64,000 nucleotides of DNA from Fidelibacterota bacterium (GCA_021734025.1 JAIPJS010000017.1:6165-70164); one strand, 5' to 3'; numbered from the stretch's first letter, positions 40,753 to 62,280 are shown. The notes: generated by a model from the sequence alone, not told the origin. Program-made: numbers and translations.

Positions 40753-41300
40753 GTACCCGCCGCATCGCGTATACCGGACTGTTTATCGCACTTGCCGTGG
40801 CTCTGGGATTTGCCCTGGTTGCCATCCCCAATTTCGAAATGATTTCCGCAACCGTGTTTATTGCCGGCTGGCTGCTCGGGCCCGGAATGGGCGCGTTGGT
40901 CGGATTCATCGCCGAACTCGTCTTCTCCGGAATTAATCCCGCCGGTTCCGGTTTTTTGTTTCCGCCGTTGCTTATAGCCCAAGTCATTTCAGTGAGCCTC
41001 ATAGGGTTCGTTGGCGGTGTTGCCAGACGCGGACAGGTATTTTTTCTGGCCTCTGCCGGCGGAGCGGTATCACTGGGTCTGCTGGGGGGATTACTTACCA
41101 TCATTTTTGATTTCCTGACCACCATCAGTTATCCGCTTGTTGCCGGATTTAACGAAACCCAAATTTGGGCGACGCTCGGCATCGGAGCACTGTTTTATAG
41201 CATGCACGTCATCTCCAACGCCGCAATCTTCGCTGTTATCGTTCCGGCGATTCTCAAAGCCGTCCATTCGCAACTCGGAATAACCGGAGTCATCCGGTGA
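40749..41300 (+). CDS. small polytopic membrane protein (ECF-transporter S-component-like)
   Basis: 183 aa, about 5 TM helices, glycine-rich; overlaps upstream stop; family assignment tentative. Confidence 0.5.
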   Translation: MSTRRIAYTGLFIALAVALGFALVAIPNFEMISATVFIAGWLLGPGMGALVGFIAELVFSGINPAGSGFLFPPLLIAQVISVSLIGFVGGVARRGQVFFLASAGGAVSLGLLGGLLTIIFDFLTTISYPLVAGFNETQIWATLGIGALFYSMHVISNAAIFAVIVPAILKAVHSQLGITGVIR

Positions 41301-43096
41301 AGTATCTGTGCGTCATATTCATCATTGGGATTGCGATTGTGCCTGGAACAGACCTCGCGGGAAAACCGCTGGATTCACTCCATGTTAGGAATCCGGACAG
41401 TACACGAATTATTATGGATTCCGAGACAGTGCCCGGGGCCGTCCGGTCGAGATCTCACCAGATGACGATACTGCGTCCTGTCGGTTTTTTTCCCAGAGAA
41501 GAGTCGGGCGCTTCCGGATACTGGCAGATGGCGCCGGGACCGCAGTATGGCCGCACCATTTTGATCCATGGTCTGGAACTCGACACCCGGCTCCGCCCGG
41601 GCTGGCCGCTCCGGTATTTCCCGCAGCATTCCCTAATTGGTATTGCGCCGGTGAGTACCGATTCCACCGGATATCCCTTGCGTTCACATCTGCTGGAACG
41701 CCGGGAAGAGCCGATGGTCGATCTTGTGTATAAAGAGGGTGACTACGGACTCAGTGCCGTATCTGTAGGGGTAGCCACGGATATCACTGATGATACACAT
41801 CTGCATCTGTCCAGAGAAGGGGAGGGTTTCGTCGGACAATTCGGAATCGACGGTCTTGAAACTGAGCGGTATTATCTCGGAGTGCACCACCGGGTGAGCG
41901 ATTCCACCCGGTTTTTGTACAGTACGTTCTATGCCAGAGATAATAGTACGTGGACGACAGCAACGCCTGCCCCCAACAGTTTCGGGAGTGAATCCTCCAG
42001 CTGGTATCAGCATCTCCTGCGATGGAACTCCCAAACCCGCTTCGGGGAGTGGGATTATGGGTTGCGTCTCGGCTCCCAACGTCTCTGGCTCAACAAAACT
42101 GCTGAAAGAGGACAGATGACCGAACTGCAGCGCGGCGGCTGGCTCGGATATCATTTCCAATTAAATAATGCGATCGGTATTCAATGGCGATATTCCGGAG
42201 TTCAGTATGTGCTGGATGGCAGTAGTTCTAATCTGCAACGTGAACTTTGGCACCGGTTGCAAGGCGGAGCCACCATTCGTTTCGGGGAATTCTCAGTGAA
42301 GGTCCACCCGGAGATTGTAACGGTTTCTACAGGTGACGAAGTATACGTCCTTCCGAACGGCAATGTATCCTATGAGCCTTTTGATTGGATTACAGCCTCG
42401 GTGGAACTGGCAGGTACTGTTACTCCAATACCGTACCAATGGGAGCAGACGTCGGAGAAAATCACCATCCCCACCAGCTCAGTCGAAAAGACAAGCACCC
42501 AAAACATCACAAGCTCGCTGGAGATCACTCCCTTTAATTTCCTTTCGGTAACCGGAGGAGCTGAGTTTACCCAATACTCCAACTGGCACAGTCTGGCGTA
42601 TAACATGCCCGCTGCCCGGACAGATTCCACGTTGACGCTGGAGACAGTAGACGGTAACCACACCGGGCTATTTGCCTCAGCAAAGTTCCAGGTTTTTGAG
42701 GAGTTCGCACTGGGAGGGCGGTATGATGTGTATCCATCAGTGAGCAACATTCTCCCTGAACTCTGGACCCGGCAGACCATCACCGGCTGGATGCAGGCAC
42801 AGCGCTACTTTTTTGATAATAACCTCCTGCTGCACGTGTACCTGGAAGGCGGGACACTGCTATCACGACAGCCGGTCGGCTGGAATCCCCGATTCCAGAG
42901 CCTGACACACTATCCCCTGTTCGGTGATCCGGAATCCTCGGTGTTTATGCATGCAATTATCCAGGGACAAATTGGGGCATTTACCATTTCCACTTCATTT
43001 TATAATGCCGCGGCAAATAATCTTATATATGCATTGGATCAGCGCCCGCCCGCTACAATATTTTATCTTGGTGTGCGCTGGCAGCTCTGGAATTGA
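41297..43096 (+). CDS. hypothetical secreted protein, possible outer-membrane beta-barrel
   Basis: Signal peptide; alternating amphipathic strands; C-terminus ..YLGVRWQLWN rich in aromatics. Confidence 0.55.
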   Translation: MKYLCVIFIIGIAIVPGTDLAGKPLDSLHVRNPDSTRIIMDSETVPGAVRSRSHQMTILRPVGFFPREESGASGYWQMAPGPQYGRTILIHGLELDTRLRPGWPLRYFPQHSLIGIAPVSTDSTGYPLRSHLLERREEPMVDLVYKEGDYGLSAVSVGVATDITDDTHLHLSREGEGFVGQFGIDGLETERYYLGVHHRVSDSTRFLYSTFYARDNSTWTTATPAPNSFGSESSSWYQHLLRWNSQTRFGEWDYGLRLGSQRLWLNKTAERGQMTELQRGGWLGYHFQLNNAIGIQWRYSGVQYVLDGSSSNLQRELWHRLQGGATIRFGEFSVKVHPEIVTVSTGDEVYVLPNGNVSYEPFDWITASVELAGTVTPIPYQWEQTSEKITIPTSSVEKTSTQNITSSLEITPFNFLSVTGGAEFTQYSNWHSLAYNMPAARTDSTLTLETVDGNHTGLFASAKFQVFEEFALGGRYDVYPSVSNILPELWTRQTITGWMQAQRYFFDNNLLLHVYLEGGTLLSRQPVGWNPRFQSLTHYPLFGDPESSVFMHAIIQGQIGAFTISTSFYNAAANNLIYALDQRPPATIFYLGVRWQLWN

Positions 43097-44360: not shown

Positions 44361-44879
44361 ATGTCAGGCAACGGCATACTCAACAGACAGGTACTGGTCT
44401 TAAACCAGAACTACGAGCCGCTCCAGATTTGTAATGCAAAGCACGCCATCGTGATGCTCTACCTGAACCGCGTGGAATTGGTGGAGAGTGATGGGGTAAT
44501 GGTGCATTCCGTCAATGACGAATTCCCGCTGCCGACAGTCGTTCGGGTAAAACGGTACATTAATTACCGTGGATACGAGGTTGTCCTGTCTCGGAAAAAT
44601 ATCATGCGCCGTGACGAATTTAAATGTCAGTATTGCGGGAAACACGACTCGCAACTAACCATTGATCACGTCACACCGAAGCGACACGGCGGAAAGGATA
44701 CCTGGGAGAATCTGGTGACAGCCTGCATCCGGTGCAACAACACCAAAGGGGATAACACCCCGGAACAGGCGAATATGCCGCTCCTGAAGCAGCCGAAAAA
44801 ACCGCACTATATCCAGTTCCTGAAGCAGCATATTGACGAGCCGATACAATCCTGGAAACCATACATTTATTTAGGCTAA
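44361..44879 (+). CDS. HNH endonuclease family protein
   Basis: C-x2-C ... H ... H ... C-x2-C HNH signature (CQYCG.., ..TIDHVTPKRHGGKDTWENLVTACIRCNNTKG). Confidence 0.8.
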   Translation: MSGNGILNRQVLVLNQNYEPLQICNAKHAIVMLYLNRVELVESDGVMVHSVNDEFPLPTVVRVKRYINYRGYEVVLSRKNIMRRDEFKCQYCGKHDSQLTIDHVTPKRHGGKDTWENLVTACIRCNNTKGDNTPEQANMPLLKQPKKPHYIQFLKQHIDEPIQSWKPYIYLG

Positions 44880-45030: not shown

Positions 45031-45765
45031 GTGAGCTACGAAGTTAAACTTGACGTCTTTGAAGGTCCACTCGACCTGCTGCTGTTTTTTATCAGCAGGG
45101 ACGAGATCGATATCTATGATATTCCCATTGCGTATATTACTGACTCGTACCTGGAATACCTGGATTTGATGCGGGAATTGAATATTAGCATTGCTGGCGA
45201 ATACATCCGGATGGCGGCGACGCTGATGCGGGTGAAAGCACGTACATTGTTACCCCAACTGGCGGGTGATCCTGATGATGAGGATTATGAGGATCCACGA
45301 TCCGAGTTGGTGGAAATGCTGCTGGAGTATAAGCGGTTCAAGGAACTTGCCGGCACTCTGAAGGTTCGGGAGTCGGATCAGAGGCAACATTTTCAGCGGA
45401 AGCCGGATCTGTCGTACGTGGATACGGATGTCCGGCCTGATGAGGTACTGAATGACGTAACCCTGTACGAATTGATGAAGACTTTTAAGCGGCTTTTGGA
45501 CAATATACCCGAAACGCCGACGCACAATATTGAGCGGGTGCAGACCAACATCCGGAAACAGTCCGAGTATCTGAGAAATCGATTACAGAAAGACGGTAAG
45601 GTGATGTTCTCCGCTATCATGAAAGAACTGGATAATAAAATTACGATCATTGTTACGTTCATTGCACTGCTGGATATGATTAAAAACCAGGAAGTGGCAA
45701 TTTTTCAGGAAACTATCTTCGAGGACTTTCGCATTGAACGCCGGATGGAAACGGCGAAGGCATAG
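45031..45765 (+). CDS. scpA: segregation and condensation protein A
   Basis: Kleisin N-terminal region (..LDVFEGPLDLLLFFISRDEIDIYDIPIA..); followed by scpB; GTG start. Confidence 0.8.
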   Translation: MSYEVKLDVFEGPLDLLLFFISRDEIDIYDIPIAYITDSYLEYLDLMRELNISIAGEYIRMAATLMRVKARTLLPQLAGDPDDEDYEDPRSELVEMLLEYKRFKELAGTLKVRESDQRQHFQRKPDLSYVDTDVRPDEVLNDVTLYELMKTFKRLLDNIPETPTHNIERVQTNIRKQSEYLRNRLQKDGKVMFSAIMKELDNKITIIVTFIALLDMIKNQEVAIFQETIFEDFRIERRMETAKA

Positions 45766-45776
45766 GTTAAGCGATT

Positions 45777-46388
45777 ATGGCTGTGGATCATTATGTATCG
45801 GTAGTAGAAGCGTTGCTGTTCGCTTCCGAGAATCCGGTAAGCGCCGGAAAAATACGGGGATGCTTTGATGAGGGGGAGGATGTGCCGGTCGAATCAATTG
45901 TCGAAGAATTGAATACCCACTATGATGAGACCGAGCGGGCATTTTTTATTATGGAAGTGGCCGGTGGCTATCAGCTGGTTACCCGGAAAGAATTCGAACC
46001 GTACGTGAAGCAGCTCTATGTGAGTTCCTCACGGATGCGCCTCTCCCAGGCAGCTTTGGAAACGCTGGCCATTGTGGCTTATAAGCAGCCGGTGAGTCGC
46101 CCGGACATCGACTCCATCCGTGGGGTGAACAGCGACGGTGTACTCCGAACATTACTGGAGCGGAATCTTATCGACATCAAGGGCAGAGAGGATGCCCCGG
46201 GTCGGCCATTACTTTATGCGACCTCCGATGAGTTTCTACGATATTTCGGTCTGAAAAGTATCAAAGATCTGCCTAAATTAAAGGAAATAGACGAACTGAC
46301 GTTGGAATCCGAGGATATTCCCGAGGATACCGACATCGCGCTAGAAGAACCCGAGGCTCCGGACGCCGAACCGAGTGCGACTGAATAA
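45777..46388 (+). CDS. scpB: segregation and condensation protein B
   Basis: Tandem winged-helix ScpB features (..VEALLFASENPVS.., ..LETLAIVAYKQPVSRPDIDSIRGV..). Confidence 0.8.
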   Translation: MAVDHYVSVVEALLFASENPVSAGKIRGCFDEGEDVPVESIVEELNTHYDETERAFFIMEVAGGYQLVTRKEFEPYVKQLYVSSSRMRLSQAALETLAIVAYKQPVSRPDIDSIRGVNSDGVLRTLLERNLIDIKGREDAPGRPLLYATSDEFLRYFGLKSIKDLPKLKEIDELTLESEDIPEDTDIALEEPEAPDAEPSATE

Positions 46389-47082
46389 GTACCTCGCCAG
46401 ATGTGGAGTAACATCCCGGCGGAAAGCCGATGACCTGATCGCTGACGGCCGGGTGGCGGTTAATGGGAAAACGGTAACCGAACTCGGAACCAAAGTTGAG
46501 CCAGACGCCGCCACTGTCACCGTCGACGGGGAAGCGGTCGAATTGCCAGACAAGTATATCTGTTATCTCCTGCACAAGCCGCAAAAATCGATATCGACCG
46601 TAGACGATCCGAAAGGGCGACCTACGGTCGTCGATCTGATAGACACGGAGCGGAGGATTTATCCGGTAGGACGCCTGGACTACGATACCACCGGCGTGCT
46701 TTTACTAACCGATGACGGAGAACTTGCCAACAAGCTGACCCATCCGTCCAACGAAGTACCGCGGAAGTATGAGGTATATTATTCCGGTAAATTGCCGGAA
46801 GATGCTCGGGGAAAATTAGCGGAAGGTATCGATATCGGAGAAGATCTGCCGGCATCCGGGGAACTTCAAATTCTCTGGGAAAAAGAAGACCATGGCGCGA
46901 CTCATCTCACGTTACATGCGGGGAGATATCATGAGGTAAAGCGCATTTTCAAACATTTTGGATGCAGCATAGAGCGGCTACACCGGATTAAATTTGCCGG
47001 CCTGGACTGCGGGGAACTGGCGCCGGGAGAATACCGGCGACTCTCGAGTGATGAATTGCAACAGCTAAAAACGGGGGAATAA
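46375..47082 (+). CDS. RsuA/RluB-family pseudouridine synthase with N-terminal S4 domain
   Basis: S4 domain (MRLNKYLARCGVTSRRKADDLI..), catalytic Asp loop (..GRLDYDTTGVLLLTDDGELANKL..); GTG start overlapping scpB end. Confidence 0.85.
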   Translation: MRLNKYLARCGVTSRRKADDLIADGRVAVNGKTVTELGTKVEPDAATVTVDGEAVELPDKYICYLLHKPQKSISTVDDPKGRPTVVDLIDTERRIYPVGRLDYDTTGVLLLTDDGELANKLTHPSNEVPRKYEVYYSGKLPEDARGKLAEGIDIGEDLPASGELQILWEKEDHGATHLTLHAGRYHEVKRIFKHFGCSIERLHRIKFAGLDCGELAPGEYRRLSSDELQQLKTGE

Positions 47083-47084
47083 TT

Positions 47085-48794
47085 ATGGATATCCGGGACA
47101 AACGAATACTCGTACTGGGGGGCTGGGGGCTAGTTGGCAGAGCCATTAGCAAGCGGATTTTGGCGCGGGGACCGGAGCAACTGATAGTGACCTCTCTGCG
47201 GAAACGGGAAACTGAAGAGGTGGTTGAAGCGTTGGAGCCCCGGGCAATGAAATACGGGGCAGAAATCGTCGGAGAATGGGGAGACATCTTCGTCAGAGAT
47301 TCCATGAAAGATGTTGGCCGGGGGGAAATGTATACGGATCAGGAGTTGCGCACCACACTCATCGCGGATATCTACGATGACCTGAGCGAGGATGTGCTGA
47401 CATCCTCAGTCCTTTATCAATTGGTGGAAAAATATCAACCGCACATTATTATTGATTGTATTAATACCGCAACGGCATTTGCGTATCAAAATCTTTTTGA
47501 ACGGGTCGCTCAGATTCGGAACTCCCTGAAATCCACCGGGAGGAGTATTGAAGACGAAGAGCATATTCTTGAGAACGTGGAACAGCTTATTGCATCCCAG
47601 TATATCCCGCAGCTGATTCGTCATATTCAGATTCTCCACGCGGCCATGTGGGAGTTCGACACCGACAGCTATTTGAAAATCGGTACCAGCGGGACCGGCG
47701 GTATGGGACTGAACGTGCCGTTTACCCACAGCGAGGAAAAGCCGTCGAAACTCTTGTTGAGCAAGTCGTCGGTAGCCGGAGCGCATACCATGTTGCTGTT
47801 TCTTATGGCGCGGACGCCGGGCGGTCCGGTGGTGAAGGAGATTAAACCGTCGGCGGCCATCGCCTGGAAGGAGATCGGTTACGGGAAGATTCGGCGGCAC
47901 GGGTCCTATATTCCCATGTACGACTGCAAAGTGGAGGATGCCAAGCGGATGGATGACTATCTGGAGAGGCATCCGGATAAGTACTGGGAGGAAATGGAGG
48001 ACAAAGTTGTAGAGTCAGTCTATATCGATGCCGGGGAAAACGGATATTTTTCCGCCGGCGAATTTTCGGTTATTACCTCTGAAGGGCTCATGGAATTTGT
48101 GACGCCGGAGGAGATCGCGGATAAAACGCTGATGGAAATTGAAGGTGGGAATACCGGCAAAGATGTGGTGGCGGCGCTGGATTCTGCCGTGCTTGATCCG
48201 TCGTATCGCGCCGGTGTCCTGCGGGAAAAGGCCGTGAATAAAATGCAACACCTGGAGGAGGAACACGAAACCCACTCTATCGCCTTCGAACTGTTAGGCC
48301 CTCCGAAAATCACGAAACTCCTGTACGAAATTTACCTGCTGAAGCGGATTACCGGTGACATCAAAAAGATTCCGGATTACGATGCGGAATCGCTCTCCGA
48401 ATCCATGGTCGGGATTATTGACTCTGACGATCATCTCCGTCAGCTTATTTTGTCAGTCGGTACCGGAATCCTGATGCCCAGTGGTAAAGATTTTCTGCGC
48501 GGACCGGATCTCAGTTTTCCGCGATTTGAGGGTGTTAACCTCTACGAGTCGACGCCGGAGAAGGTTGATTTCTGGGCGGACAATGGCTGGCTGGATCTGC
48601 GAGTAAAGAACATGGAGGCCTGGCGGGACAGGATCACCGCCATACTGGAGGAAATGGGGGAGGACAGCGAAGAAGACTACTCATCTGAGTTCTATCATCG
48701 ACACAAATACGAGTTCGACTTCGGCTCCAGTGAGCTGGGCGCTATTGTAAGCTGGATTCTGGATAAGGAAGAGGATGGCGCGCGGATAAAGTAG
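47085..48794 (+). CDS. hypothetical protein with N-terminal Rossmann-like dinucleotide-binding motif (569 aa)
   Basis: N-terminus KRILVLGGWGLVGRAI resembles a GxGxxG NAD(P)-binding loop; remainder unrecognised. Confidence 0.6.
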   Translation: MDIRDKRILVLGGWGLVGRAISKRILARGPEQLIVTSLRKRETEEVVEALEPRAMKYGAEIVGEWGDIFVRDSMKDVGRGEMYTDQELRTTLIADIYDDLSEDVLTSSVLYQLVEKYQPHIIIDCINTATAFAYQNLFERVAQIRNSLKSTGRSIEDEEHILENVEQLIASQYIPQLIRHIQILHAAMWEFDTDSYLKIGTSGTGGMGLNVPFTHSEEKPSKLLLSKSSVAGAHTMLLFLMARTPGGPVVKEIKPSAAIAWKEIGYGKIRRHGSYIPMYDCKVEDAKRMDDYLERHPDKYWEEMEDKVVESVYIDAGENGYFSAGEFSVITSEGLMEFVTPEEIADKTLMEIEGGNTGKDVVAALDSAVLDPSYRAGVLREKAVNKMQHLEEEHETHSIAFELLGPPKITKLLYEIYLLKRITGDIKKIPDYDAESLSESMVGIIDSDDHLRQLILSVGTGILMPSGKDFLRGPDLSFPRFEGVNLYESTPEKVDFWADNGWLDLRVKNMEAWRDRITAILEEMGEDSEEDYSSEFYHRHKYEFDFGSSELGAIVSWILDKEEDGARIK

Positions 48795-48797
48795 AAA

Positions 48798-48817
48798 GGG
48801 GTATAAGGGTATAAGGG
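48798..48817 (+). repeat. G-tract module GGGGTATAAGGGTATAAGGG after stop codon
   Basis: Starts 4 nt after the stop at 48794. Confidence 0.55.
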
Positions 48818-49060
48818 ATTAGTATTACGTACTGCGTATTAGTGTCCAGGTGTTCCACACAAGCGCGTATGAAACCGGAAAAGGGGACAGATTGAATATC
48901 CAACCGACGATTATCCAATGCTCTGCTGCGGCGGAACGGCGAACCAATCCCGAGGACCCCACCCGGTTCTGACCCCTTCTAAAGAATTCAATATCATGAA
49001 TGATGAGTGAAAAAGTGAAGAACGCGGAGAGCGGAAACTGAAGAATCTCGAGCATCTAAA

Positions 49061-49106
49061 CAATAACACGGGAATACCCGAACACTATAACACTATTTTC
49101 AACACT
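49061..49106 (+). repeat. octamer NNRAACAC module upstream of cmk
   Basis: AATAACAC .. CCGAACAC TATAACAC .. TTCAACAC, about 50 bp upstream of the 49157 start. Confidence 0.5.
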
Positions 49107-49156
49107 TGAAATTCGGTTTGCAATCGCAAGGGGAAACTTCTAAATTCCAAAGCTAA

Positions 49157-49852
49157 ATGAGAACAAAACTAACTATAGCAATTGATGGTCCGTCAGGATC
49201 AGGGAAAAGTACCACTGCCCGGCGCAGTGCCGAACGGCTGGATTATACCTATGTCGACACCGGCGCCATGTACCGGGCCATTACGCTACACATTCTCAAC
49301 AACAACGTCCCGATTAAGGATAAATCGCAGGTAGTGAAAGCGGCGGCTGAGGTGCAGATTCAGTTCACCCGGACCGGTGACCGGCTTGAAGTGTTGCTGG
49401 ACGGGAAGAACGTCACCGATGCTATTCGCGAGCCACGGATTGATAAGTCGGTGGGACTTGTAAGTGAGAACCCCGGGGTGCGTGCCATACTGGTGAATTT
49501 ACAGCGATCGCTCGCAAAGGATGGCGGGGTGGTCATGGAAGGACGTGATATCGGTACCCGGGTACTCCCCGATGCCGATCTCAAGTTTTTCATGGATGCC
49601 GACCTCGACATCAGGGCGGAACGCCGGAAATCTCAGTTGGCCGATCAGGGGGTAGATGTAGACAAAGAAACCGTTAAACAAGAACTGGTCAATCGGGATA
49701 CTCGCGATTCCGAGCGCGATGAATCGCCGCTTCGTGCCGCGGAGCACGCTATTCTGATTGATACAACAAACCTTTCCATTGAAGACCAGGTGGACTTAAT
49801 CGTCCAGCGAGCGAGGGAGAAGGAAGCACAGGAGGTTACTCTTCATGAGTGA
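49157..49852 (+). CDS. cmk: cytidylate kinase
   Basis: P-loop IAIDGPSGSGKST and CMP-kinase specific regions. Confidence 0.9.
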   Translation: MRTKLTIAIDGPSGSGKSTTARRSAERLDYTYVDTGAMYRAITLHILNNNVPIKDKSQVVKAAAEVQIQFTRTGDRLEVLLDGKNVTDAIREPRIDKSVGLVSENPGVRAILVNLQRSLAKDGGVVMEGRDIGTRVLPDADLKFFMDADLDIRAERRKSQLADQGVDVDKETVKQELVNRDTRDSERDESPLRAAEHAILIDTTNLSIEDQVDLIVQRAREKEAQEVTLHE

Positions 49853-52088
49853 AGAAGAAAAACAGCAACAAACCCAAGATGAGGAAACACAAGTCGAAGA
49901 AGTAGAAGAAACACAGGAGAAGGCACCTGAAAGTGATGAACAGACGGAGGCAGCAGAAGAACAGGAAACCGCTGCTCCGGAATCCGATGGCAACGGACAA
50001 ACCACTGACTTTGGCATCCTCGATCTTGACGACATTCAGACCATTCCGAAAGACGAGTTAGTCGAAAAGCGTGAAGAGACCGACGAAGAGGAAGAGCAAC
50101 TTCGCTCGCTGCTGTCAGACACGTTAAAGGATATCGGCGAAAACCAGATCACTGAAGGCCGCGTGCTCTCCATTAATGAGCGCGAAGTCGTGGTGGATAT
50201 CGGGTTTAAGGCAGAAGGGCTGATCCCCATTGAAGAATTTGAAGGTGACGATCTGCCAGAGCCGGGAGAAGAAGTCGACGTCTATATCGATTTTCTGGAA
50301 GACGAAGACGGCCAGCTGATTCTCTCCAAGCGCAAAGCTGACTTTATGAAGCAGTGGGAGAAGGTCGCCAATGCCGAAGCCAACGACGAGGAAGTCGAGG
50401 GAACTATTGTCCGCCGCGTGAAGGGTGGTATGATGGTGGACGTCAGCGGCGTCAACTGCTTCCTGCCGGGGTCACAGATCGATGTCCGGCCGATTCAGGA
50501 TTTCGACGCCTACGTTGGGCAGACCTTCAATTTCAAGATCGTCAAAATCAACGAAATGCGGAAAAACGTGGTGCTCTCCCGGAAGGTCATTCTGGAAGAG
50601 AATCTCAAAGAGCGCCGGAAAGAACTCCTCAAGGATATCGAGGTCGGTCAGGTGCTCCAGGGCCGCGTCAAAAATATCACCGACTTCGGCGTGTTCGTTG
50701 ATCTCGGTGGCATAGACGGCTTGATCCATATTACGGATCTCTCCTGGGGCCGTGTGAATCATCCGTCGGAGGTGGCCAATCTGGAAGAAGTTATCGACGT
50801 GATGGTCATCGATTATGACGAAGAGAAACAGCGTGTTTCTCTCGGACTCAAGCAATTGCAGCCGCATCCCTGGGATAGCGTGGAGGAGAAATACCCCGTG
50901 GGTTCCGTTGTCACCGGCAAGGTGGTCAGCATCACCAATTACGGCGCCTTTGTCGAGCTGGAGAAGGGCATCGAAGGGTTGGTGCACATCTCGGAGATTT
51001 CATGGGTGAAACACATCAAGCATCCTTCGGAAGTCTTTTCACTCGGTGAGGAAATCGATGTAAAAGTGCTGGATATCCAGCCGGAAGAGCAGAAAATTTC
51101 TCTGGGCGTCAAACAGTTGGAACCGGATCCCTGGGAAGAGATCGAAAAGAAATTCGAACCGGGATCCATCGTTACCGGTATCGTCCGGAACCTCACCCAG
51201 TTTGGTGCATTTGTTGAACTGGAAGAGGGTATTGATGGGCTGATTCATGTGTCCGACATGTCCTGGACCCGGAAGATCCGGCATCCCAAGGAAATTCTCT
51301 CCAAGAGTGATGAAGTCCAGGTCAAGGTCCTGGATGTCTCCAAGGACGAGCGGAAAATTTCCCTTGGCCTGAAACAGGTGGAAGAGGATCCGTGGCCCAA
51401 GATCAAGGAGAAGTTCAAGATCGGTACAACAACCCAGGGCAAGGTGGAGCGTATCCTGAACAAGGGGATTATCGTGAATCTGGAACTGGATGTGGAAGGT
51501 ATTGTCCCGTTGTCTCATATTCCGAAAAAGGATCGGAAGCAGATGACGCAGAACATCCAGGTCGGTGACGAAATGGAACTGAAGGTTATCGACATCAATG
51601 AGGATGATAAAAAAATCGTACTCTCCCGGGATGAATTCATCCAGGACAAGGACCAGCACGAGGTCGATATGTTTATGAAGACTCAGGGCGGCCAGGCGGC
51701 TGAAAAGATCGAAATTCCGGAAGAAGTCCGGAAAACGATTGAAGAAGGCGAAAGCCAGGCTGAAGAAGAGCCCGAGAGTACCGAAGCCGAGGAAGAAGTG
51801 ACCGAGAAGGCCACTGCCAACGAAGTCGACGAAGGGACAGACGAAGAGGAGGACGCAGCTCAACCAGAATCTGCAGAGGATGACGAAGAAGCAGTGAAGG
51901 CAGAAGAAGCCGAAGAGGCCGACGAAGAGGAAGCGACAGAGGCAAAATCGGAGGCCGACGAAGCAAACGACAAATCGGAGGAGAAAGAAGAAGACGACGT
52001 GGAGGAGGAACCAGAGGACGACGGGGATGCCGAGGATGACGTTGATGAAGATGAGGATGAAGATGAGGATGAGGAGTCGGAGAAATAA
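49845..52088 (+). CDS. rpsA: 30S ribosomal protein S1 with acidic N- and C-terminal extensions
   Basis: Six S1-type OB-fold repeats; Glu/Asp-rich N-terminal segment (about 60 aa) and C-terminal tail (about 100 aa); start overlaps cmk end. Confidence 0.9.
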   Translation: MSEEEKQQQTQDEETQVEEVEETQEKAPESDEQTEAAEEQETAAPESDGNGQTTDFGILDLDDIQTIPKDELVEKREETDEEEEQLRSLLSDTLKDIGENQITEGRVLSINEREVVVDIGFKAEGLIPIEEFEGDDLPEPGEEVDVYIDFLEDEDGQLILSKRKADFMKQWEKVANAEANDEEVEGTIVRRVKGGMMVDVSGVNCFLPGSQIDVRPIQDFDAYVGQTFNFKIVKINEMRKNVVLSRKVILEENLKERRKELLKDIEVGQVLQGRVKNITDFGVFVDLGGIDGLIHITDLSWGRVNHPSEVANLEEVIDVMVIDYDEEKQRVSLGLKQLQPHPWDSVEEKYPVGSVVTGKVVSITNYGAFVELEKGIEGLVHISEISWVKHIKHPSEVFSLGEEIDVKVLDIQPEEQKISLGVKQLEPDPWEEIEKKFEPGSIVTGIVRNLTQFGAFVELEEGIDGLIHVSDMSWTRKIRHPKEILSKSDEVQVKVLDVSKDERKISLGLKQVEEDPWPKIKEKFKIGTTTQGKVERILNKGIIVNLELDVEGIVPLSHIPKKDRKQMTQNIQVGDEMELKVIDINEDDKKIVLSRDEFIQDKDQHEVDMFMKTQGGQAAEKIEIPEEVRKTIEEGESQAEEEPESTEAEEEVTEKATANEVDEGTDEEEDAAQPESAEDDEEAVKAEEAEEADEEEATEAKSEADEANDKSEEKEEDDVEEEPEDDGDAEDDVDEDEDEDEDEESEK

Positions 52089-53541: not shown

Positions 53542-54576
53542 ATGTCTGACAAGACAGTCGGAACAGTGCTGGGGATAGAAACCTCTTGCGATGAGACTTC
53601 CGTTGGAATTGTTCGTGATGGAAAGGTGTTAAGTAACATTATTGCCTCTCAGCAGGTGCATTCCGAATACGGCGGAGTGGTCCCGGAAATGGCATCCCGG
53701 GAGCATGAGCGATTGTTGGCCCATATTACCAGAGAAGCTTGTGACGACGCGCATCTCCGGTTTACTGACATCGATGGAATAGCTGTCACTGCCGGCCCGG
53801 GTCTTATGGGGTCACTGCTCGTTGGGATTAATTTTGCCAAGGGACTCGTTCTGCGGAACTCGCTTCCATTCATTGGAATAAACCATATCGAAGCCCACCT
53901 GCTGGCCAATTTTATTGAAGCTGAAACTCTGGAATACCCGTTTCTTTGTCTGCTGGTTTCCGGCGGGCACTCGCAGATTATACGCGTGAACGGATACGAC
54001 AAATACGACATTCTGGGGACTACCATGGATGATGCGGCCGGCGAAGCGTTCGATAAGGTGGCGCGGCTGTTAGATTTGGGATATCCGGGAGGACCGTATA
54101 TCCAAAAACAGAGCGAGGGCGGGCAATCCGATAAATACGATTTCCCCAGGGGGTTGCTGGATTCCGGTGATTTGAATTTTTCCTTTTCCGGACTGAAGAC
54201 GGCGGTATTGTACACGGTGAAACCCATGGAGGTGAAAAAGCGGACAGCCGAGCGCCCTCACATCAGCGCCAGCTTTCAGGCGGCAGTAGTGGAGTCTCTG
54301 GTGGCCAAGATGGAAATGGCCATCGAACAGACCGGCATCACCCAGGTGACACTTGCCGGTGGGGTGGCAGCGAATGCGGAGCTGCGGCGTCAAATGGATG
54401 AACTCCGCGACCGACACGGGCTGAATTTGTACTATCCATCTCTGGAATACTGTACCGATAACGGCGCCATGATTGCCTATGCCGGTTGGGAGGGGTTTCG
54501 TCACGACAAATCTTCCGAACTGGATCTCACCGCTACCCCGCGGGTCAGTATATCGTCACCAGTTTTTACCTCCTGA
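53542..54576 (+). CDS. tsaD: tRNA N6-adenosine threonylcarbamoyltransferase
   Basis: Kae1/TsaD signatures (..LGIETSCDETSVGIV.., ..INHIEAHLL.., ..GGVAAN..); AGGAG RBS. Confidence 0.9.
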   Translation: MSDKTVGTVLGIETSCDETSVGIVRDGKVLSNIIASQQVHSEYGGVVPEMASREHERLLAHITREACDDAHLRFTDIDGIAVTAGPGLMGSLLVGINFAKGLVLRNSLPFIGINHIEAHLLANFIEAETLEYPFLCLLVSGGHSQIIRVNGYDKYDILGTTMDDAAGEAFDKVARLLDLGYPGGPYIQKQSEGGQSDKYDFPRGLLDSGDLNFSFSGLKTAVLYTVKPMEVKKRTAERPHISASFQAAVVESLVAKMEMAIEQTGITQVTLAGGVAANAELRRQMDELRDRHGLNLYYPSLEYCTDNGAMIAYAGWEGFRHDKSSELDLTATPRVSISSPVFTS

Positions 54577-56612
54577 TGTTTTCACTGCATACTGTTACTC
54601 TATGGATTACTGTTCCTCTCATTTTGGGAGGACTGTTGTTCTGGTGGTGGTCAACCCGTTACCTATCGAGTGTTACAAATCCCACTGTTGCCGGAATAAT
54701 CCGGGGGATTCGTCTGTTTGCATTGATTGGGATTATACTGTTAGTTGCGGATTTTCGAATTAATTGGGTCACGCATCAAAATATTCCACCAACAATTGCC
54801 GTCTTCGCCGACGATTCGCAAAGTTTGACAGATTTTGAAGGACAGCTCTCCGATTCATTGGAAAAAATTCTGTCTGAAGATGCCGTAGAGGTCCAACTAT
54901 TCCGTTTTTCGGGAGATGTTCAGAAGACGGGTTCACCCAAGGCTTTGGATTTTTCCGGAACCGAAACCAATTTAAGTGCTCCGTTAGAATACCTGAAACG
55001 AGAAGCCGACAACCGGAATTACCAGGCGGCGATTTTACTCAGCGACGGTATCCATAACAGCGGACCAGAACCAACATCAGTTCTGGAGGATTGGCGGCTT
55101 CCGGTGTATACGATGTTTATCGGAGATTCGACGGTTGCGCCGGATATCAGCCTCCAACAATTTACGCTTCCCAAATACGCATATGCCGGGGATTCCGTTA
55201 CCGCCCAATTGAGGCTGGATGTTCAGTCACTCCGAAACGAAGAATCTGTCTCTCTCGTTCTCAGAGACAACAACCAGGAGTTGGCGAGCAGAACCCTGTC
55301 ACTGACGCCAGGGGATTACCAGCGGTCTGATGAGGTGGCACTGCAGTTCGAAGAGCCTGGTGAATATACTGTCTCAGCGGCTGTTGGTACGGTTTCAAAC
55401 GAGACGGATGTGGCCAATAATAGTTCCCGGGAACGCATTACAGTGAAGCCGTCCCGGTACCGGGTGCTGGTGTTAAGCGCAGCGCCGTCAACGGATACGC
55501 GCTTTCTGCTCAACGCTATCGATAATCTTGAGCGGTTCGAGTCCATTCCGATCTTTACATCACTCTCGGTTCCTGATTCGATGCCGGAAGCCCCCGATAT
55601 TATTTATTTGTTGGGCAATTCGCCGGAGTTTCAGTCGTATCTGAGCGAGTGGCAAAACGACCACACGATTACACAGGTTGGTGCGGGCGGGAGAATGTAT
55701 CTTCCCGGCGATTCCGGAGAAGAGAATGTGAACAACTGGCAGGAGCACCAGGTCACGCTCCAGCGATCCTCGGAAAGTCCTCTGCAGTCCCTTCCCTGGG
55801 GACAATCGATATGGGAGCAACTGCCTCCGGTCTGGATCCCGGCGGCATCAGAAATCGGGAAAATACGCGGGACCACGATTTTAAAATCTGTCGATGGGAA
55901 TAATTCTGTAATAACCATGGATGTGGATGGCACCGGACGAACTATTCGTGTCTATGCAAGAGAACTCTGGCGGTGGTCGTTTGCGAACCGGGATGCTGAA
56001 GAAAGTATCGAAGTACTCCCTGAGAAGCCGTATTCCAGGGTGATGGAACAGGTTTTTTACTGGTTGCTGCAGGATACGGAGTTTCAGCGATTGCAGGTAG
56101 AGTTGGACACCGATTCAAGAAACGTGATCCGGGCGACGGCTCAAGTATATTCCCGGGCACTGGAGGTTGCGGAAGTCGCGAGGGTATGGGGTGAAGTGAT
56201 CGATTCGACAGGACAAACCATCCGGCGGCAGCCGTTTACCCGGGATGGAAATACTTTTACTTTTCAGTCGAAGGTGACTTCGCCGGGGGAGTATCGGCTC
56301 AGGGCTATTGCTCATCTGACAGACGATACGCTGCGTTCCGTAGCCGGACCGGTTCGGATGGAGGATGTAGAGTATGAGTTATTGAATCGCCAGGGGCGCC
56401 CCGGTTTGCTGAAACAGATTAGTCAGCGATCTGGCGGCAAGCTCTTGGAAAATATTGCGGAGTTACCGGCGGAGGAGTTCGCGGGCCGCCCGTACACACA
56501 GCAATCAGAGCACCATTCCTTTGCATTGCGCAGGGCGTTTTGGGTGTGGATTTTACTCGTCATTCTGCTGGGCATAGACTGGTGGATCCGCCGGCGGAGC
56601 GGGATTCTGTGA
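54576..56612 (+). CDS. hypothetical membrane protein with N-terminal double TM segment and C-terminal TM anchor (about 678 aa)
   Basis: ATG overlaps tsaD stop (TGATG); two N-terminal hydrophobic helices, large soluble middle, C-terminal helix then RRRSGIL; supplied ORF extends further upstream in the same frame. Confidence 0.55.
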   Translation: MFSLHTVTLWITVPLILGGLLFWWWSTRYLSSVTNPTVAGIIRGIRLFALIGIILLVADFRINWVTHQNIPPTIAVFADDSQSLTDFEGQLSDSLEKILSEDAVEVQLFRFSGDVQKTGSPKALDFSGTETNLSAPLEYLKREADNRNYQAAILLSDGIHNSGPEPTSVLEDWRLPVYTMFIGDSTVAPDISLQQFTLPKYAYAGDSVTAQLRLDVQSLRNEESVSLVLRDNNQELASRTLSLTPGDYQRSDEVALQFEEPGEYTVSAAVGTVSNETDVANNSSRERITVKPSRYRVLVLSAAPSTDTRFLLNAIDNLERFESIPIFTSLSVPDSMPEAPDIIYLLGNSPEFQSYLSEWQNDHTITQVGAGGRMYLPGDSGEENVNNWQEHQVTLQRSSESPLQSLPWGQSIWEQLPPVWIPAASEIGKIRGTTILKSVDGNNSVITMDVDGTGRTIRVYARELWRWSFANRDAEESIEVLPEKPYSRVMEQVFYWLLQDTEFQRLQVELDTDSRNVIRATAQVYSRALEVAEVARVWGEVIDSTGQTIRRQPFTRDGNTFTFQSKVTSPGEYRLRAIAHLTDDTLRSVAGPVRMEDVEYELLNRQGRPGLLKQISQRSGGKLLENIAELPAEEFAGRPYTQQSEHHSFALRRAFWVWILLVILLGIDWWIRRRSGIL

Positions 56613-57049: not shown

Positions 57050-58375
57050 GTGAAGAAGATTGCGGTGATTGGTACAGGCTACGTTGGCCTGGTCAGCGGG
57101 ACGGGACTGGCAGATTTCGGCAACAAGGTAACCTGTCTCGATATTGACGAAGAGAAGATTGAGATCCTGCAGAGCGGGGAACTGCCGATCTGGGAACCCG
57201 GTCTCCTGGAACTGGTGCAGAAAAACGTCCGAAGCAACCGGTTGCATTTTTCTACGGATATTCCCAGTGAAATCCAGGAGGCGGAGGTGGTCTTTATCGC
57301 CGTCGGCACGCCTAGTGCGGATAACGGTGAGGCCGATCTGAGTGCTGTCTACGCGGTCGCCGAGACTATCGGTCAGAACCTGAACGGACATAAGTTTATC
57401 GTGACCAAGAGTACCGTGCCGGTGGGGACCGGGCGAAAAGTCCGGGAGATTATCGAGGAGCAGGCGCCGGCCGGGAGCAGCTTCGAGGTGATTAGCAATC
57501 CTGAATTTCTCAGAGAAGGTTCGGCCGTCTATGATTTTATGCATCCGGATCGGGTAGTCATTGGCACTGAGACGGAGGACGGTCACGAGGTAATGCAGGA
57601 TATTTATCGACCGCTCTATCTCATCGAGACGCCATTTGTGTTTACGAATGTGCCGACTGCCGAGCTGATTAAATACGCATCAAATGCGTTTCTGGCGACA
57701 AAAATTACCTTTATTAATGAAATCGCGAACATATGTGACGGCGTGGGGGCAGATGTCCACATGGTGGCCAAAACCATGGGGATGGATGGTCGGATCTCAC
57801 CCAAGTTTCTGCATCCCGGCCCGGGCTACGGCGGTTCCTGCTTTCCCAAAGATGTGAAAGCGCTCCATGCCATCGCCAAAGAGGCCGGATACGATGCGGA
57901 ACTGATTGAGGCCGTGACCCGTGTGAATCAGAATCAGAAAACACGGATGTTCACGAAACTGGAAAAGATGTTGCCGGACCTGGACGGGAAAACCGTTACT
58001 TTGCTGGGACTCGCGTTTAAGCAGAGGACGGACGATGTCCGTGAATCCCCGGCCCTGCCGATTATCGATCACCTGAAAGCGGCCGGAGCGACTATCAGAG
58101 CCTTCGATCCCGTAGCCATGGAATCCATGAGAAAACGACATGCTGACCTTGATTATTACGAGGATATTTATGAAAGCGTGAAAGGCTCCGACGCCGTAAT
58201 GATTCTCACGGAATGGAATGAATTCCGGGGACTGGATCTGGCGAGGATTAAATCGAATATGCGCCAGCCGAATATGGTGGATGCCCGGAATTTGTATGAT
58301 CCGGATACCGTGCGAAAAGCCGGATTCAAGTATGCGTGTGTCGGCCGGGAAACCTATAGCGAGCAATTATCATGA
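57050..58375 (+). CDS. UDP-glucose/GDP-mannose dehydrogenase family protein (UDP-glucose 6-dehydrogenase-like)
   Basis: N-terminal Rossmann motif KIAVIGTGYVGLVSG; catalytic-Cys region ..GPGYGGSCFPKD..; GTG start with GGAG RBS. Confidence 0.85.
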   Translation: MKKIAVIGTGYVGLVSGTGLADFGNKVTCLDIDEEKIEILQSGELPIWEPGLLELVQKNVRSNRLHFSTDIPSEIQEAEVVFIAVGTPSADNGEADLSAVYAVAETIGQNLNGHKFIVTKSTVPVGTGRKVREIIEEQAPAGSSFEVISNPEFLREGSAVYDFMHPDRVVIGTETEDGHEVMQDIYRPLYLIETPFVFTNVPTAELIKYASNAFLATKITFINEIANICDGVGADVHMVAKTMGMDGRISPKFLHPGPGYGGSCFPKDVKALHAIAKEAGYDAELIEAVTRVNQNQKTRMFTKLEKMLPDLDGKTVTLLGLAFKQRTDDVRESPALPIIDHLKAAGATIRAFDPVAMESMRKRHADLDYYEDIYESVKGSDAVMILTEWNEFRGLDLARIKSNMRQPNMVDARNLYDPDTVRKAGFKYACVGRETYSEQLS

Positions 58376-58830
58376 TTGAGGGCGTACAGACCAAACAGCT
58401 GAAGATCATCCCTGATGAGCGGGGCCGTCTTTTCGAGATCCTGCGGAATGACGACGAGATGTTCACCGAATTCGGGCAGGTCTATCTTACGACCAATTAT
58501 CCCGGCGTGGTGAAGGCGTGGCATTATCATAAGTCCCAGCGACACGATGCAGTCTGTTGCGTCTCCGGGATGATTAAGCTGGTGCTATACGACAACCGCG
58601 AAGAGAGTCCGACATATGGCGAGGTGAATGAGTTTTTTATCGGGGAACATAATATGATGATTGTGAGTATTCCCCAGTATGTGTGCCACGGATGGAAGGG
58701 GATCTCTGAACAGGAATCGATGGTTTTGAGCGTGGTAAGTGAACCGTATAATCACGAGGATCCGGACGAGTACCGCCTGCCGTACGATACTGACGAAATT
58801 CCGTACGACTGGGAGCGGAAAAATCGATGA
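58372..58830 (+). CDS. RmlC-like cupin sugar epimerase/isomerase (dTDP-4-dehydrorhamnose 3,5-epimerase family, short form)
   Basis: 152 aa cupin-like with ..IPDERGRLFEIL.. and ..AWHYHK.. segments; within a nucleotide-sugar gene cluster. Confidence 0.55.
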   Translation: MIEGVQTKQLKIIPDERGRLFEILRNDDEMFTEFGQVYLTTNYPGVVKAWHYHKSQRHDAVCCVSGMIKLVLYDNREESPTYGEVNEFFIGEHNMMIVSIPQYVCHGWKGISEQESMVLSVVSEPYNHEDPDEYRLPYDTDEIPYDWERKNR

Positions 58831-59873
58831 AGATTACTGAACAGACATTTTTTGTGACAGGAGGCTGCGGATTTATCGGCAGCAATTATGTCCGGTTTCT
58901 GCATCAAAAATATCCCGATGTTACGATTGTAAACCTGGATAAACTGACCTATGCCGGCAATCCGGAAAATCTCAGCGATATCGAGGAATCGGAACGGTAC
59001 CACTTTGTAAAGGGCGATATCTGCAATAAAGAATTGGTCGATGAACTGTTTGAGGAGTATCAACCAGACGTCCTGGTGAATTTCGCCGCGGAGAGCCATG
59101 TGGACCGCTCTATCGGCGCGCCGGATGATTTTATCGATACGGATGTCTACGGAGCATACAGGCTCCTGGAGGCCTCCAAATCCCATGGGATAGCAAAATT
59201 CATCCAGATTTCCACCGATGAGGTCTACGGCAGCATCGAGGACGGCGAGTTCAGCGAGACCGATCCGCTGATGCCGCGGAATCCGTATTCGGCGAGTAAA
59301 GCCGGCGCCGACCGCCTGGCGTATTCGTATTCCCAGACATACGATCTTCCGGTGATTGTGACCAGGGCATCGAATAATTTCGGCCCCTATCAGTACCCGG
59401 AAAAGCTGATTCCGCTGTTCGTAACCAACGCCATCGACGGCGAACAGCTTCCGCTTTACGGCGACGGGAAGAACGTTCGCGACTGGCTATACGTGGAAGA
59501 TCACTGTGACGCCATCTGCTTTATCATCGAAAACGGTGAAGACGGGGAGACCTACAATATTGGCGGCGGCAACGAAAAGCAGAATATCCAGATTACGAAA
59601 GCGATTCTCAATGCGCTCGGCAAGGATGAGTCGCTCATCAAATATGTCCGGGATCGCCAGGGACATGACCGGCGATATGCGCTGGATACGGAGAAACTTG
59701 GATCGCTGGGATGGCAGCCCCGTTTCCGAGGCGATGACGGGTTTCGCGACGCAATGCAACTGACCGTCGATTGGTACCGCGACAACGAAAATTGGTGGCG
59801 CCCCCTGAAAAGCGGGGAGTTTCTGGAATATTATAAATCGCACTATAACATGGAATTATCAGAGCAGGGATGA
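58827..59873 (+). CDS. rfbB: dTDP-glucose 4,6-dehydratase
   Basis: SDR extended family: TGGCGFIGSNYV Rossmann motif, YSASKAGAD catalytic YxxxK. Confidence 0.85.
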   Translation: MKITEQTFFVTGGCGFIGSNYVRFLHQKYPDVTIVNLDKLTYAGNPENLSDIEESERYHFVKGDICNKELVDELFEEYQPDVLVNFAAESHVDRSIGAPDDFIDTDVYGAYRLLEASKSHGIAKFIQISTDEVYGSIEDGEFSETDPLMPRNPYSASKAGADRLAYSYSQTYDLPVIVTRASNNFGPYQYPEKLIPLFVTNAIDGEQLPLYGDGKNVRDWLYVEDHCDAICFIIENGEDGETYNIGGGNEKQNIQITKAILNALGKDESLIKYVRDRQGHDRRYALDTEKLGSLGWQPRFRGDDGFRDAMQLTVDWYRDNENWWRPLKSGEFLEYYKSHYNMELSEQG

Positions 59874-61201
59874 GTGGAAGTATGACCTTTGAAGAGCGAA
59901 TTCAAAATCATGATATCACCCTGGGCGTGGTTGGCCTGGGATATGTTGGCCTGCCGCTGGCAGTGGATTTTGCCTCGGCCGGGTTTAAGGTGATCGGTAT
60001 TGATATCGATGACTCCAAAATTGAAAAAATCAACGCCGGAGAAAACTACATCCAGGATGTGTCCGATTCGGAACTACGGGGCCACGTGGAGACCGGGAAA
60101 CTCTCCGCTACCACTGACTTTAGCGTTATTGATGAACTTGATGCGATTTCTATCTGTGTACCCACCCCGCTGAATAAGCTGAAAGATCCGGACGTGTCGT
60201 TCATCCTGAACGCGCTGGATGAGATCAACGAACATATGCACAAGGATCTTATCATTGTCCTGGAGAGCACAACGTACCCGGGCACAACCCGGGAACTGGT
60301 GCTCCCGAAACTGTCTGAAAGCGGCCTGGAGGTCGGGAAGGATTTCTTCCTGGTGTTCAGTCCCGAACGCGTCGATCCGGGGAACGAGACGTATCATACC
60401 AAAAATACGCCGAAGGTCCTGGGCGGCATCACCGATGAGTGCACCCGTCTGGGGAAGATTCTCTACGAAGAGGTGATAGAGACCATCGTTCCGGTCTCCT
60501 CCACCGAGGCGGCGGAGCTCGTTAAACTGTTGGAAAATACCTTTCGGTCCATTAACATCGGACTTGTGAACGAAATGGCCATCATGGCGGAAAAACTGGG
60601 TGTGGATATCTGGGAGGTCATCGATGCTGCGGACACCAAGCCGTTCGGGTTTATGAAGTTCTATCCCGGTCCTGGCCTTGGCGGTCACTGCATTCCTATC
60701 GATCCCCATTATCTGGCCTGGAAGATGAAGACTTTGGATTACAAGGCGCGCTTCATCGAACTGGCCGGGGAAATTAATACGGAGATGCCGTATCACGTGG
60801 TACAACTGGTGATGGACGGGTTGAATCGATATAAAAAGAGCGTGAACGGAGCAAAAATCCTGGTGATGGGAGTCGCCTATAAAAAGAATATCGACGACGT
60901 CCGGGAATCCCCTGCGCTGGATATCATCCGTCTCCTCCAGGAGAAAGGCGCGGAAGTGGACTACTACGATCCCTTCATCGATAACATCAAGCTCGATGGC
61001 ACGAATATGGAGTCCATCCGGTATTCTACTGATATTTTAGGGAACTACGACTGTAACGTTATTGCCACAGATCATTCAACGTTTGACTATAATGAAATTG
61101 TGGAGAAAAGTAGCCTGGTGATTGATACGCGGAATGCGGCCAAAGTGCATGATAGCGTTCAAAAGGACAAAATTATTAAATTGGGTGGGAATAACAGTTG
61201 A
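59870..61201 (+). CDS. nucleotide-sugar dehydrogenase (UDP-N-acetyl-D-hexosamine dehydrogenase-like)
   Basis: Rossmann motif LGVVGLGYVGLPLA; catalytic-Cys region ..GPGLGGHCIPID.. Confidence 0.8.
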   Translation: MSGSMTFEERIQNHDITLGVVGLGYVGLPLAVDFASAGFKVIGIDIDDSKIEKINAGENYIQDVSDSELRGHVETGKLSATTDFSVIDELDAISICVPTPLNKLKDPDVSFILNALDEINEHMHKDLIIVLESTTYPGTTRELVLPKLSESGLEVGKDFFLVFSPERVDPGNETYHTKNTPKVLGGITDECTRLGKILYEEVIETIVPVSSTEAAELVKLLENTFRSINIGLVNEMAIMAEKLGVDIWEVIDAADTKPFGFMKFYPGPGLGGHCIPIDPHYLAWKMKTLDYKARFIELAGEINTEMPYHVVQLVMDGLNRYKKSVNGAKILVMGVAYKKNIDDVRESPALDIIRLLQEKGAEVDYYDPFIDNIKLDGTNMESIRYSTDILGNYDCNVIATDHSTFDYNEIVEKSSLVIDTRNAAKVHDSVQKDKIIKLGGNNS

Positions 61202-62202: not shown

Positions 62203-62280
62203 CTTACAACTTAGCATATTGAGCCGGGGCACCTCACATCTATACCGAAATTATAATGAATTACAAATAAGGTAGTTTTA

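Follow-up and report, generated by a model that had tools for sequence, protein, structure and literature searches.

A gene of the scpA-scpB-rluB neighbourhood in a Fidelibacterota genome encodes an atypical SDR-fold protein of the poorly characterised family PF27054

A stretch of 64,000 nucleotides from a Fidelibacterota bacterium (GCA_021734025.1 JAIPJS010000017.1:6165-70164), referred to below as the window, carries on its + strand an ATG-initiated open reading frame (ORF), gene X (47085..48794). Its product of 569 amino acids (aa), with the N-terminus MDIRDKRILVLGGWGLVG, belongs to PF27054, the Pfam family of Ind2-type atypical SDR (short-chain dehydrogenase/reductase) oxidoreductases. X is a real and highly conserved member of a family that is catalogued but poorly characterised, and consists of an SDR-fold core of ~255 residues followed by a domain of ~310 residues that has no relative among the structures solved in the PDB. 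At roughly even chances, we read X as a cytoplasmic NAD(P)(H)-dependent oxidoreductase, likely a 2-oxo-acid reductase, that is separate from Ind2 and whose place in its operon is incidental.

A first-pass annotation, made from the sequence alone, had described X as an unrecognised protein with a Rossmann-like N-terminus. Searches of Pfam-A, NCBIfam and the PDB sequences agree with it, as just residues ~2-90 are matched, by SDR/KR-like entries. All SDR models stay under their curated Pfam/NCBIfam cut-offs with X (KR 22.2 bits, with a cut-off of 22.6; Epimerase 15.8, with a cut-off of 20.9), and the NCBIfam SDR models score far below theirs. The Pfam-A copy scanned was an older one that lacks the PF27054 model, and the assignment to this family comes from the precomputed annotation of database proteins. 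The top match (P0001, ‘short-chain dehydrogenase [Candidatus Marinimicrobia bacterium]’) is 100% identical to X over 569 aa and carries PF27054, and PF27054.1 is precomputed on all 120 homologs listed. Since X is thus already in a catalogued family, the strong form of the claim that it is unrecognised is deflated. The annotation had named placement in a well-characterised enzyme family as the outcome that would contradict it, and the searches came halfway to this: the newer Pfam family covers X, but is not itself well characterised, because we know of only one characterised enzyme linked to it, no member has a solved structure (family profile searched against all PDB sequences), and a search for literature on PF27054, its enzyme name, the family or the organisms that carry it returned nothing relevant.

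The family is large and yet essentially unstudied, structurally unsolved and mechanistically atypical. A word-indexed protein search with X gave at least 7,999 matches at E<=1e-3, and, among 1.84 billion representatives searched exhaustively with HMMER, 812 clusters (at 50% identity) passed E<=1e-3 and 234 passed E<=1e-30, with full-length relatives down to ~29% identity. Full-length alignments to PF27054 members reach down to 26% identity, and the residues of the C-terminal domain are conserved in them too. At least 586 genomes carry a relative in a scan of one genome per species; the best 80 of these bear the labels Marinimicrobia, Calditrichota/Caldithrix, KSB1, Ignavibacteria/Melioribacter, Kapabacteria or certain others given to metagenome-assembled genomes (MAGs). 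The family also has members in Thermoanaerobaculia, Clostridia, MAGs labelled Patescibacteria and the diatom Seminavis robusta. The diatom protein (P0195, 644 aa, annotated ‘expressed unknown protein/short-chain dehydrogenase’) is a full-length member with ~32% identity to X, so the family is not confined to bacteria. The source names of 20 diverse members are all ‘hypothetical’ or ‘short-chain dehydrogenase’, and the substrate and mechanism of the family, once defined, would annotate thousands of genes carrying such names. Two fusion proteins were set aside as uninformative: P0141 (3HCDH and X) comes from a contig on which many genes are split and may be an assembly artefact, and P0219 (a fragment of X and a peptidylprolyl isomerase) probably is one.

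The SDR-fold NAD(P)-binding and catalytic core comprises residues 1-255 (47085..47849, + strand) and contains a helical insertion at residues ~137-172. The C-terminal, family-specific domain comprises residues 256-569 (47850..48791, + strand), with near-universal residues from G317 to R567. Structure prediction, which the first-pass annotation had proposed as a check, returned both the SDR-fold core and a confident C-terminal domain. The AlphaFold2 model of full-length X has a mean predicted local distance difference test score (pLDDT) of 80 and a predicted template modelling score (pTM) of 0.69. When residues 256-569 were modelled alone, with the full-length homologs as the alignment, the domain was compact and confident (pLDDT 85.6, pTM 0.87). 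The match of the family profile to the PDB sequences is limited to the Rossmann region.

Conservation was counted in an alignment of 321 full-length members with 26-100% identity. The dinucleotide-binding loop G12-G-W-G-L-V-G18 (47118..47138, + strand) keeps G12 in 318, G15 in 319 and G18 in 320 of the 321 sequences. Directly after strand β5 lies the signature loop of the family, K198-I-G-T-S-G-T-G-G-M-G-L-N-V-P-F-T-H-S-E217 (47676..47735, + strand). It keeps K198 in 320 sequences, T201 in 311, G203 and G205 in all 321, G206 in 320, M207 in 318, G208 in 319, N210 in 303, T214 in 308 and H215 in 312. Other near-universal residues of the core are D124, N127, A129, T130, Y196, S221 and P255. Those of the C-terminal domain are G317-E318-N319, M336, T340, E342, E343, L404, G405, K411, E415, W502, D504, R506, W513 and R567, and for K411, E415, D504, R506 and W513 the counts lie between 312 and 320 of the 321 members. 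The glycine-rich loop with T214-H215 and the charged C-terminal residues K411, E415, D504 and R506 are common to all subfamilies.

Three positions were placed on the SDR motifs from the sequence together with the predicted secondary structure (helix αF). T201 would occupy the position of the SDR catalytic Ser after strand β5, and K227 (47763..47765, + strand; conserved in 312/321) would be the Lys on helix αF, equivalent to that of the YxxxK motif. Residue 223, at the position of the Tyr, is Leu in X, and the five commonest residues there (M, G, V, A and L) cover 251 of the 321 members. The classical Ser-Tyr-Lys triad is therefore incomplete in X: Thr and Lys are kept and the canonical Tyr is absent. 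The obvious candidate to stand in for it is T214-H215, at the end of the glycine-rich loop.

X has the Rossmann fold and the glycine-rich NAD(P)-binding motif of classical SDRs, and differs from them (for example MalC, 6nkh; AerF, 6jh7; and glucose 1-dehydrogenase, 1gee) in several respects. The sequences share 11-18% identity, and X lacks the catalytic Tyr of the YxxxK motif and possesses a helical insertion of ~35 residues and the invariant G-T-x-G-x-G-G-M-G…T-H loop. It is also more than twice their size, with the extra domain of 310 residues.

In the mechanism that we propose, NAD(P)H would give a hydride to the carbonyl group of a small carboxylic acid; the likeliest reaction is the conversion of a 2-oxo acid, which may be an aryl one, into a 2-hydroxy acid. 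In place of the absent Tyr, H215 or Y196 would donate the proton, Lys and Arg residues of the C-terminal domain would hold the carboxylate of the substrate, and this domain would close over the active site. The basic stretch S37-L-R-K-R41 after strand β2 hints at NADPH rather than NADH.

The choice of a 2-oxo acid follows the name of the family and the gene contexts of its distant members. PF27054 is named ‘Beta_methylindole_red_C’, and the β-methylindole-3-pyruvate reductase of this name is Ind2 of indolmycin biosynthesis; Ind3 of the same pathway is of the PEP (phosphoenolpyruvate)-utilising type. Ind2 is an NADH-dependent ketone reductase that converts 3-methyl-indolepyruvate into indolmycenic acid (PMC8246080; PMC5925218), and the coupling step of Ind3 is ATP-dependent (PMC8246080). 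The target of indolmycin is, according to the literature, tryptophanyl-tRNA synthetase (TrpRS), and the indolmycin cluster of Pseudoalteromonas includes a TrpRS that gives resistance in Streptomyces griseus (PMC5069768). By precomputed annotation, Ind2 of Streptomyces griseus and X are in the same Pfam family, and the chemistry is presumably the same, an NAD(P)H-dependent reduction of the carbonyl of a 2-oxo acid.

Homologs with ~27% identity to X, which carry G-A-G-Q-I-G in place of G-G-W-G-L-V-G, form a distant subfamily, and it is just for this subfamily that indolmycin-like clusters with TrpRS are seen. In Wukongibacter (L086) the homolog P0217 lies 103-135 nt 3' of a TrpRS gene, the range depending on the start codon chosen. 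This TrpRS is divergent and passes the trpS equivalog model TIGR00233 at 219 bits (389 bits for the housekeeping copy). The surrounding cluster (L086:1989-21671) contains two B12-radical-SAM enzymes, a carrier protein, a carbamoyltransferase, a thioesterase and a nonribosomal peptide synthetase. In four further contigs (L096, L097, L098 and L101) the TrpRS gene abuts the homolog of X, with gaps of -11 to +16 nt and with the HIGH and KMSKS motifs intact; L096 and L098 have a second TrpRS copy. L086, L097 and L098 also encode a PPDK_N-type ATP-utilising enzyme, and B12-radical-SAM enzymes occur in L086 and L098. The TrpRS-adjacent loci, from contigs of anaerobes and gut bacteria (besides L086, the modules are L097:287-4181, L098:4-7640 and L101:20-2851), have the appearance of indolmycin-like clusters in which the reductase is of the Ind2 type, and these contexts support the meaning of the Pfam name independently of a direct alignment.

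Distant members also give independent hints of 2-oxo and 2-hydroxy acid chemistry. A chorismate-mutase-methyltransferase fusion is encoded near the homolog in L096, a transporter of the auxin-efflux-carrier family follows the homolog in abundant gut Clostridia, and in L102 (3615-8647) a thiamine pyrophosphate (TPP)-dependent 2-oxoacid enzyme, an HGD-D 2-hydroxyacyl-CoA dehydratase component and the homolog of X stand in series, flanked by PAS histidine kinases. Because distant members adjoin either TrpRS or enzymes of 2-oxo and 2-hydroxy acids, 2-oxo-acid reduction is supported as the chemistry of the family. The distant subfamily marks indolmycin-like clusters (a homolog of X with TrpRS, an ATP-dependent enzyme and a B12-radical-SAM enzyme) in anaerobes and gut bacteria; compounds that target TrpRS might be made by these loci, and such modules could guide mining for TrpRS-targeting antibiotics.

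The reaction proposed for X, from a 2-oxo acid to a 2-hydroxy acid, is of the type carried out by the FldH/HgdH-type 2-hydroxyacid dehydrogenases of reductive amino-acid fermentation, and one member of the family directly follows the HGD-D component and the TPP-dependent 2-oxoacid enzyme. In chuangxinmycin biosynthesis, the step of Ind2 is proposed to be done by CxnC, a homolog of PanE (PMC5925218). No sequence similarity to X was detected for FldH/HgdH or for PanE/CxnC. The FldH/HgdH and PanE folds (D-2-hydroxyacid dehydrogenase and 6PGDH-like) are unrelated to the family of X. That X might be an analogue of ketopantoate reductase, as the PanE-like CxnC and the panC-cmk fusions of cyanobacteria would suggest, was considered and is kept as an idea only.

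Several observations weigh against the assignment of X as a 2-oxo-acid reductase. X is just ~27% identical to the subfamily of the indolmycin-like clusters and differs from it as a clade in GGWGLVG/GAGQIG, H180/F, G200/S and E217/D. The putative link between Ind2 and PF27054 comes from the Pfam name and the gene-cluster contexts and not from a direct alignment; no protein named Ind2 surfaced in the source names or in the profile search with the distant subfamily, and tblastn of a distant family member against plasmids gave no match. With the SDR Tyr missing, catalysis by X is not guaranteed. The signature loop is flexible, with residues 204-219 at low confidence in the model (pLDDT<50), the roles given to H215, Y196, K411 and R506 in catalysis and substrate binding are putative, and the preference for NADPH is a guess from a motif. 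Among the loci examined, no recurrent metabolic partner gene stands beside the members of the window's clade. A bolder possibility, which we consider rather unlikely, is that the GGWGLVG clade is a housekeeping enzyme of the core set whose C-terminal domain is structurally new. By a Tyr-less SDR mechanism it might catalyse a step of central metabolism that is still unassigned, or have an NAD(P)H-linked role in translation or chromosome biology, and would then not be an arylpyruvate reductase.

The neighbourhood of X was followed by tblastn of the window's neighbours against 85 loci, and then by clustering the flanking ORFs in 170 loci. The window's clade spans Marinimicrobia, Calditrichota, KSB1, Ignavibacteria and others. 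The order scpA-scpB-rluB-X-cmk(-rpsA), which the first-pass annotation had put forward for a synteny check, occurs in 35 of the 158 loci of this clade and is absent from 123; these scpAB-type loci belong to Marinimicrobia, Calditrichota, KSB1 and a few others. In genomes of the Ignavibacteria type, X is divergent from genes for a ptsN-like EIIA, hisS, lgt and a trmH-like methyltransferase, and in other loci it follows a small ybjQ/UPF0145-like ORF (all assigned by reading). With the order kept in just 35/158 loci, it is no family-wide functional association; the position of X as the last gene of scpA-scpB-rluB-X is lineage-specific operon packing in Marinimicrobia, Calditrichota and KSB1, not shared function, and carries no functional information. 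Where rluB is present, in 32 related loci, its junction with X falls within -5 to +7 nt for about 20 of them, which makes their co-transcription likely. Of the suggested co-expression with chromosome segregation and ribosome functions, the transcriptional part is supported for rluB, and a functional tie is not. We judge it unlikely that X is a non-catalytic atypical SDR (NmrA/HSCARG-like) that senses NAD(P) and would act as a regulator or partner of the co-transcribed chromosome-condensation and ribosome machinery; this and the three readings weighed next are all less likely than a 2-oxo-acid reductase.

An enzyme acting on RNA or nucleotides, that is, an NAD(P)H-dependent modification or salvage enzyme tied to rluB, cmk, trpS or tsaD, would suit the recurrently translation- or nucleotide-related neighbours of X and the trpS gene that heads trpS-scpA-scpB-rluB-X in 15 of the 35 scpAB-type loci. 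However, trpS is near X in none of the other 123 loci of the clade, so its association is explained by scpAB and not by X, and a link between trpS and X in the window's clade was rejected. The fold searches turned up no precedent for RNA modification by an SDR-type enzyme, nor do we know of one, and the distant members sit with enzymes of small-molecule acids; the chance of this reading appears slim. Slimmer still is that of a CapD/PglF-like nucleotide-sugar 4,6-dehydratase or another ‘polysaccharide biosynthesis protein’. The best profile-to-PDB match is UDP-GlcNAc 4,6-dehydratase (3pvz, E 4e-7), X has a weak match to Polysacc_synt_2, among the homologs one bears the name ‘polysaccharide biosynthesis protein’ and P0078 has PF02719, and a polysaccharide cluster lies ~8 kb 3' of X. 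The match to Polysacc_synt_2 covers just residues ~4-76, and the segment after β5 is G-T-S-G-T-G-G, not the active-site motif S-T-D-K of CapD/PglF.

That X is a true ortholog of Ind2, making a tryptophan-derived, indolmycin-like inhibitor of TrpRS in a Marinimicrobia genome, is barely credible, for all that it has the name of PF27054 and the trpS gene in the operon of related genomes in its favour. The genes expected around an Ind2 ortholog (an indolepyruvate methyltransferase, an ATP-dependent coupling enzyme and a resistant TrpRS) are not found at X: the 64-kb window has no trpS, and near X it has no methyltransferase, PPDK_N-type enzyme or other gene of an indolmycin cluster. The GGWGLVG-type clade is core-like over several phyla, in housekeeping contexts of FCB-group phyla, with ~27% identity to the cluster-associated subfamily. 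The window's clade is not an Ind2 ortholog, and is a separate, widely conserved clade of primary metabolism.

In the window, X is surrounded by HNH, scpA, scpB, rluB, cmk, rpsA, ybbR and tsaD. The rluB-like pseudouridine synthase gene (46375..47082, + strand; Pfam S4 and PseudoU_synth_2) ends 2 nt before X, which starts 2 nt past its stop codon, and translational coupling of the two is probable. scpA (45031-45765, + strand; SMC_ScpA 7e-34) and scpB (45777-46388, + strand; SMC_ScpB 1.4e-57) are apparently the 5' genes of the same operon. On the 3' side follow cmk (49157-49852, + strand; Cytidylate_kin 1.6e-70) and, overlapping it, rpsA (49845-52088, + strand; 747 aa). The latter was assigned by reading the translation, and related loci yielded the equivalent gene when searched with it by tblastn. 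The window's rpsA product has long, highly acidic low-complexity tails at the N- and C-terminus. In a related MAG (L004:10337-13651) a single gene call of 1104 aa spans cmk and rpsA, either as a fusion or as an artefact of gene calling.

X and cmk are separated by a non-coding spacer of 362 nt (48795..49156) with one promoter-like site (48969-48997) and no terminator-like site on the + strand. An Rfam scan of the whole 64-kb window, this spacer included, gave no match, and conservation against related loci is absent except for ~47 nt directly before cmk. The corresponding gap in relatives is 3-614 nt, with one outlier of 1,175 nt, and the 362 nt of the window are unusually long.

A gene for an HNH endonuclease (44361-44879, 172 aa, Pfam HNH/HNH_5) lies 5' of scpA; it recurs there in loci of Marinimicrobia, KSB1 and Calditrichota, and stands directly 5' of X in several Ignavibacteria loci. 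At E<=1e-5, Pfam gave no match for two long ORFs of the window (41297-43096, 599 aa, and 54486-56612, 708 aa), and the former is kept beside an NlpC/P60 gene in the closest relative (L006). The polysaccharide biosynthesis and export cluster occupies 57050-63528 and is not linked to X. It encodes two proteins of the UDP-glucose/GDP-mannose dehydrogenase family, an RmlC-like epimerase, a GDP-mannose-4,6-dehydratase-like SDR, a Wza-like exporter and a Wzz-like chain-length determinant.
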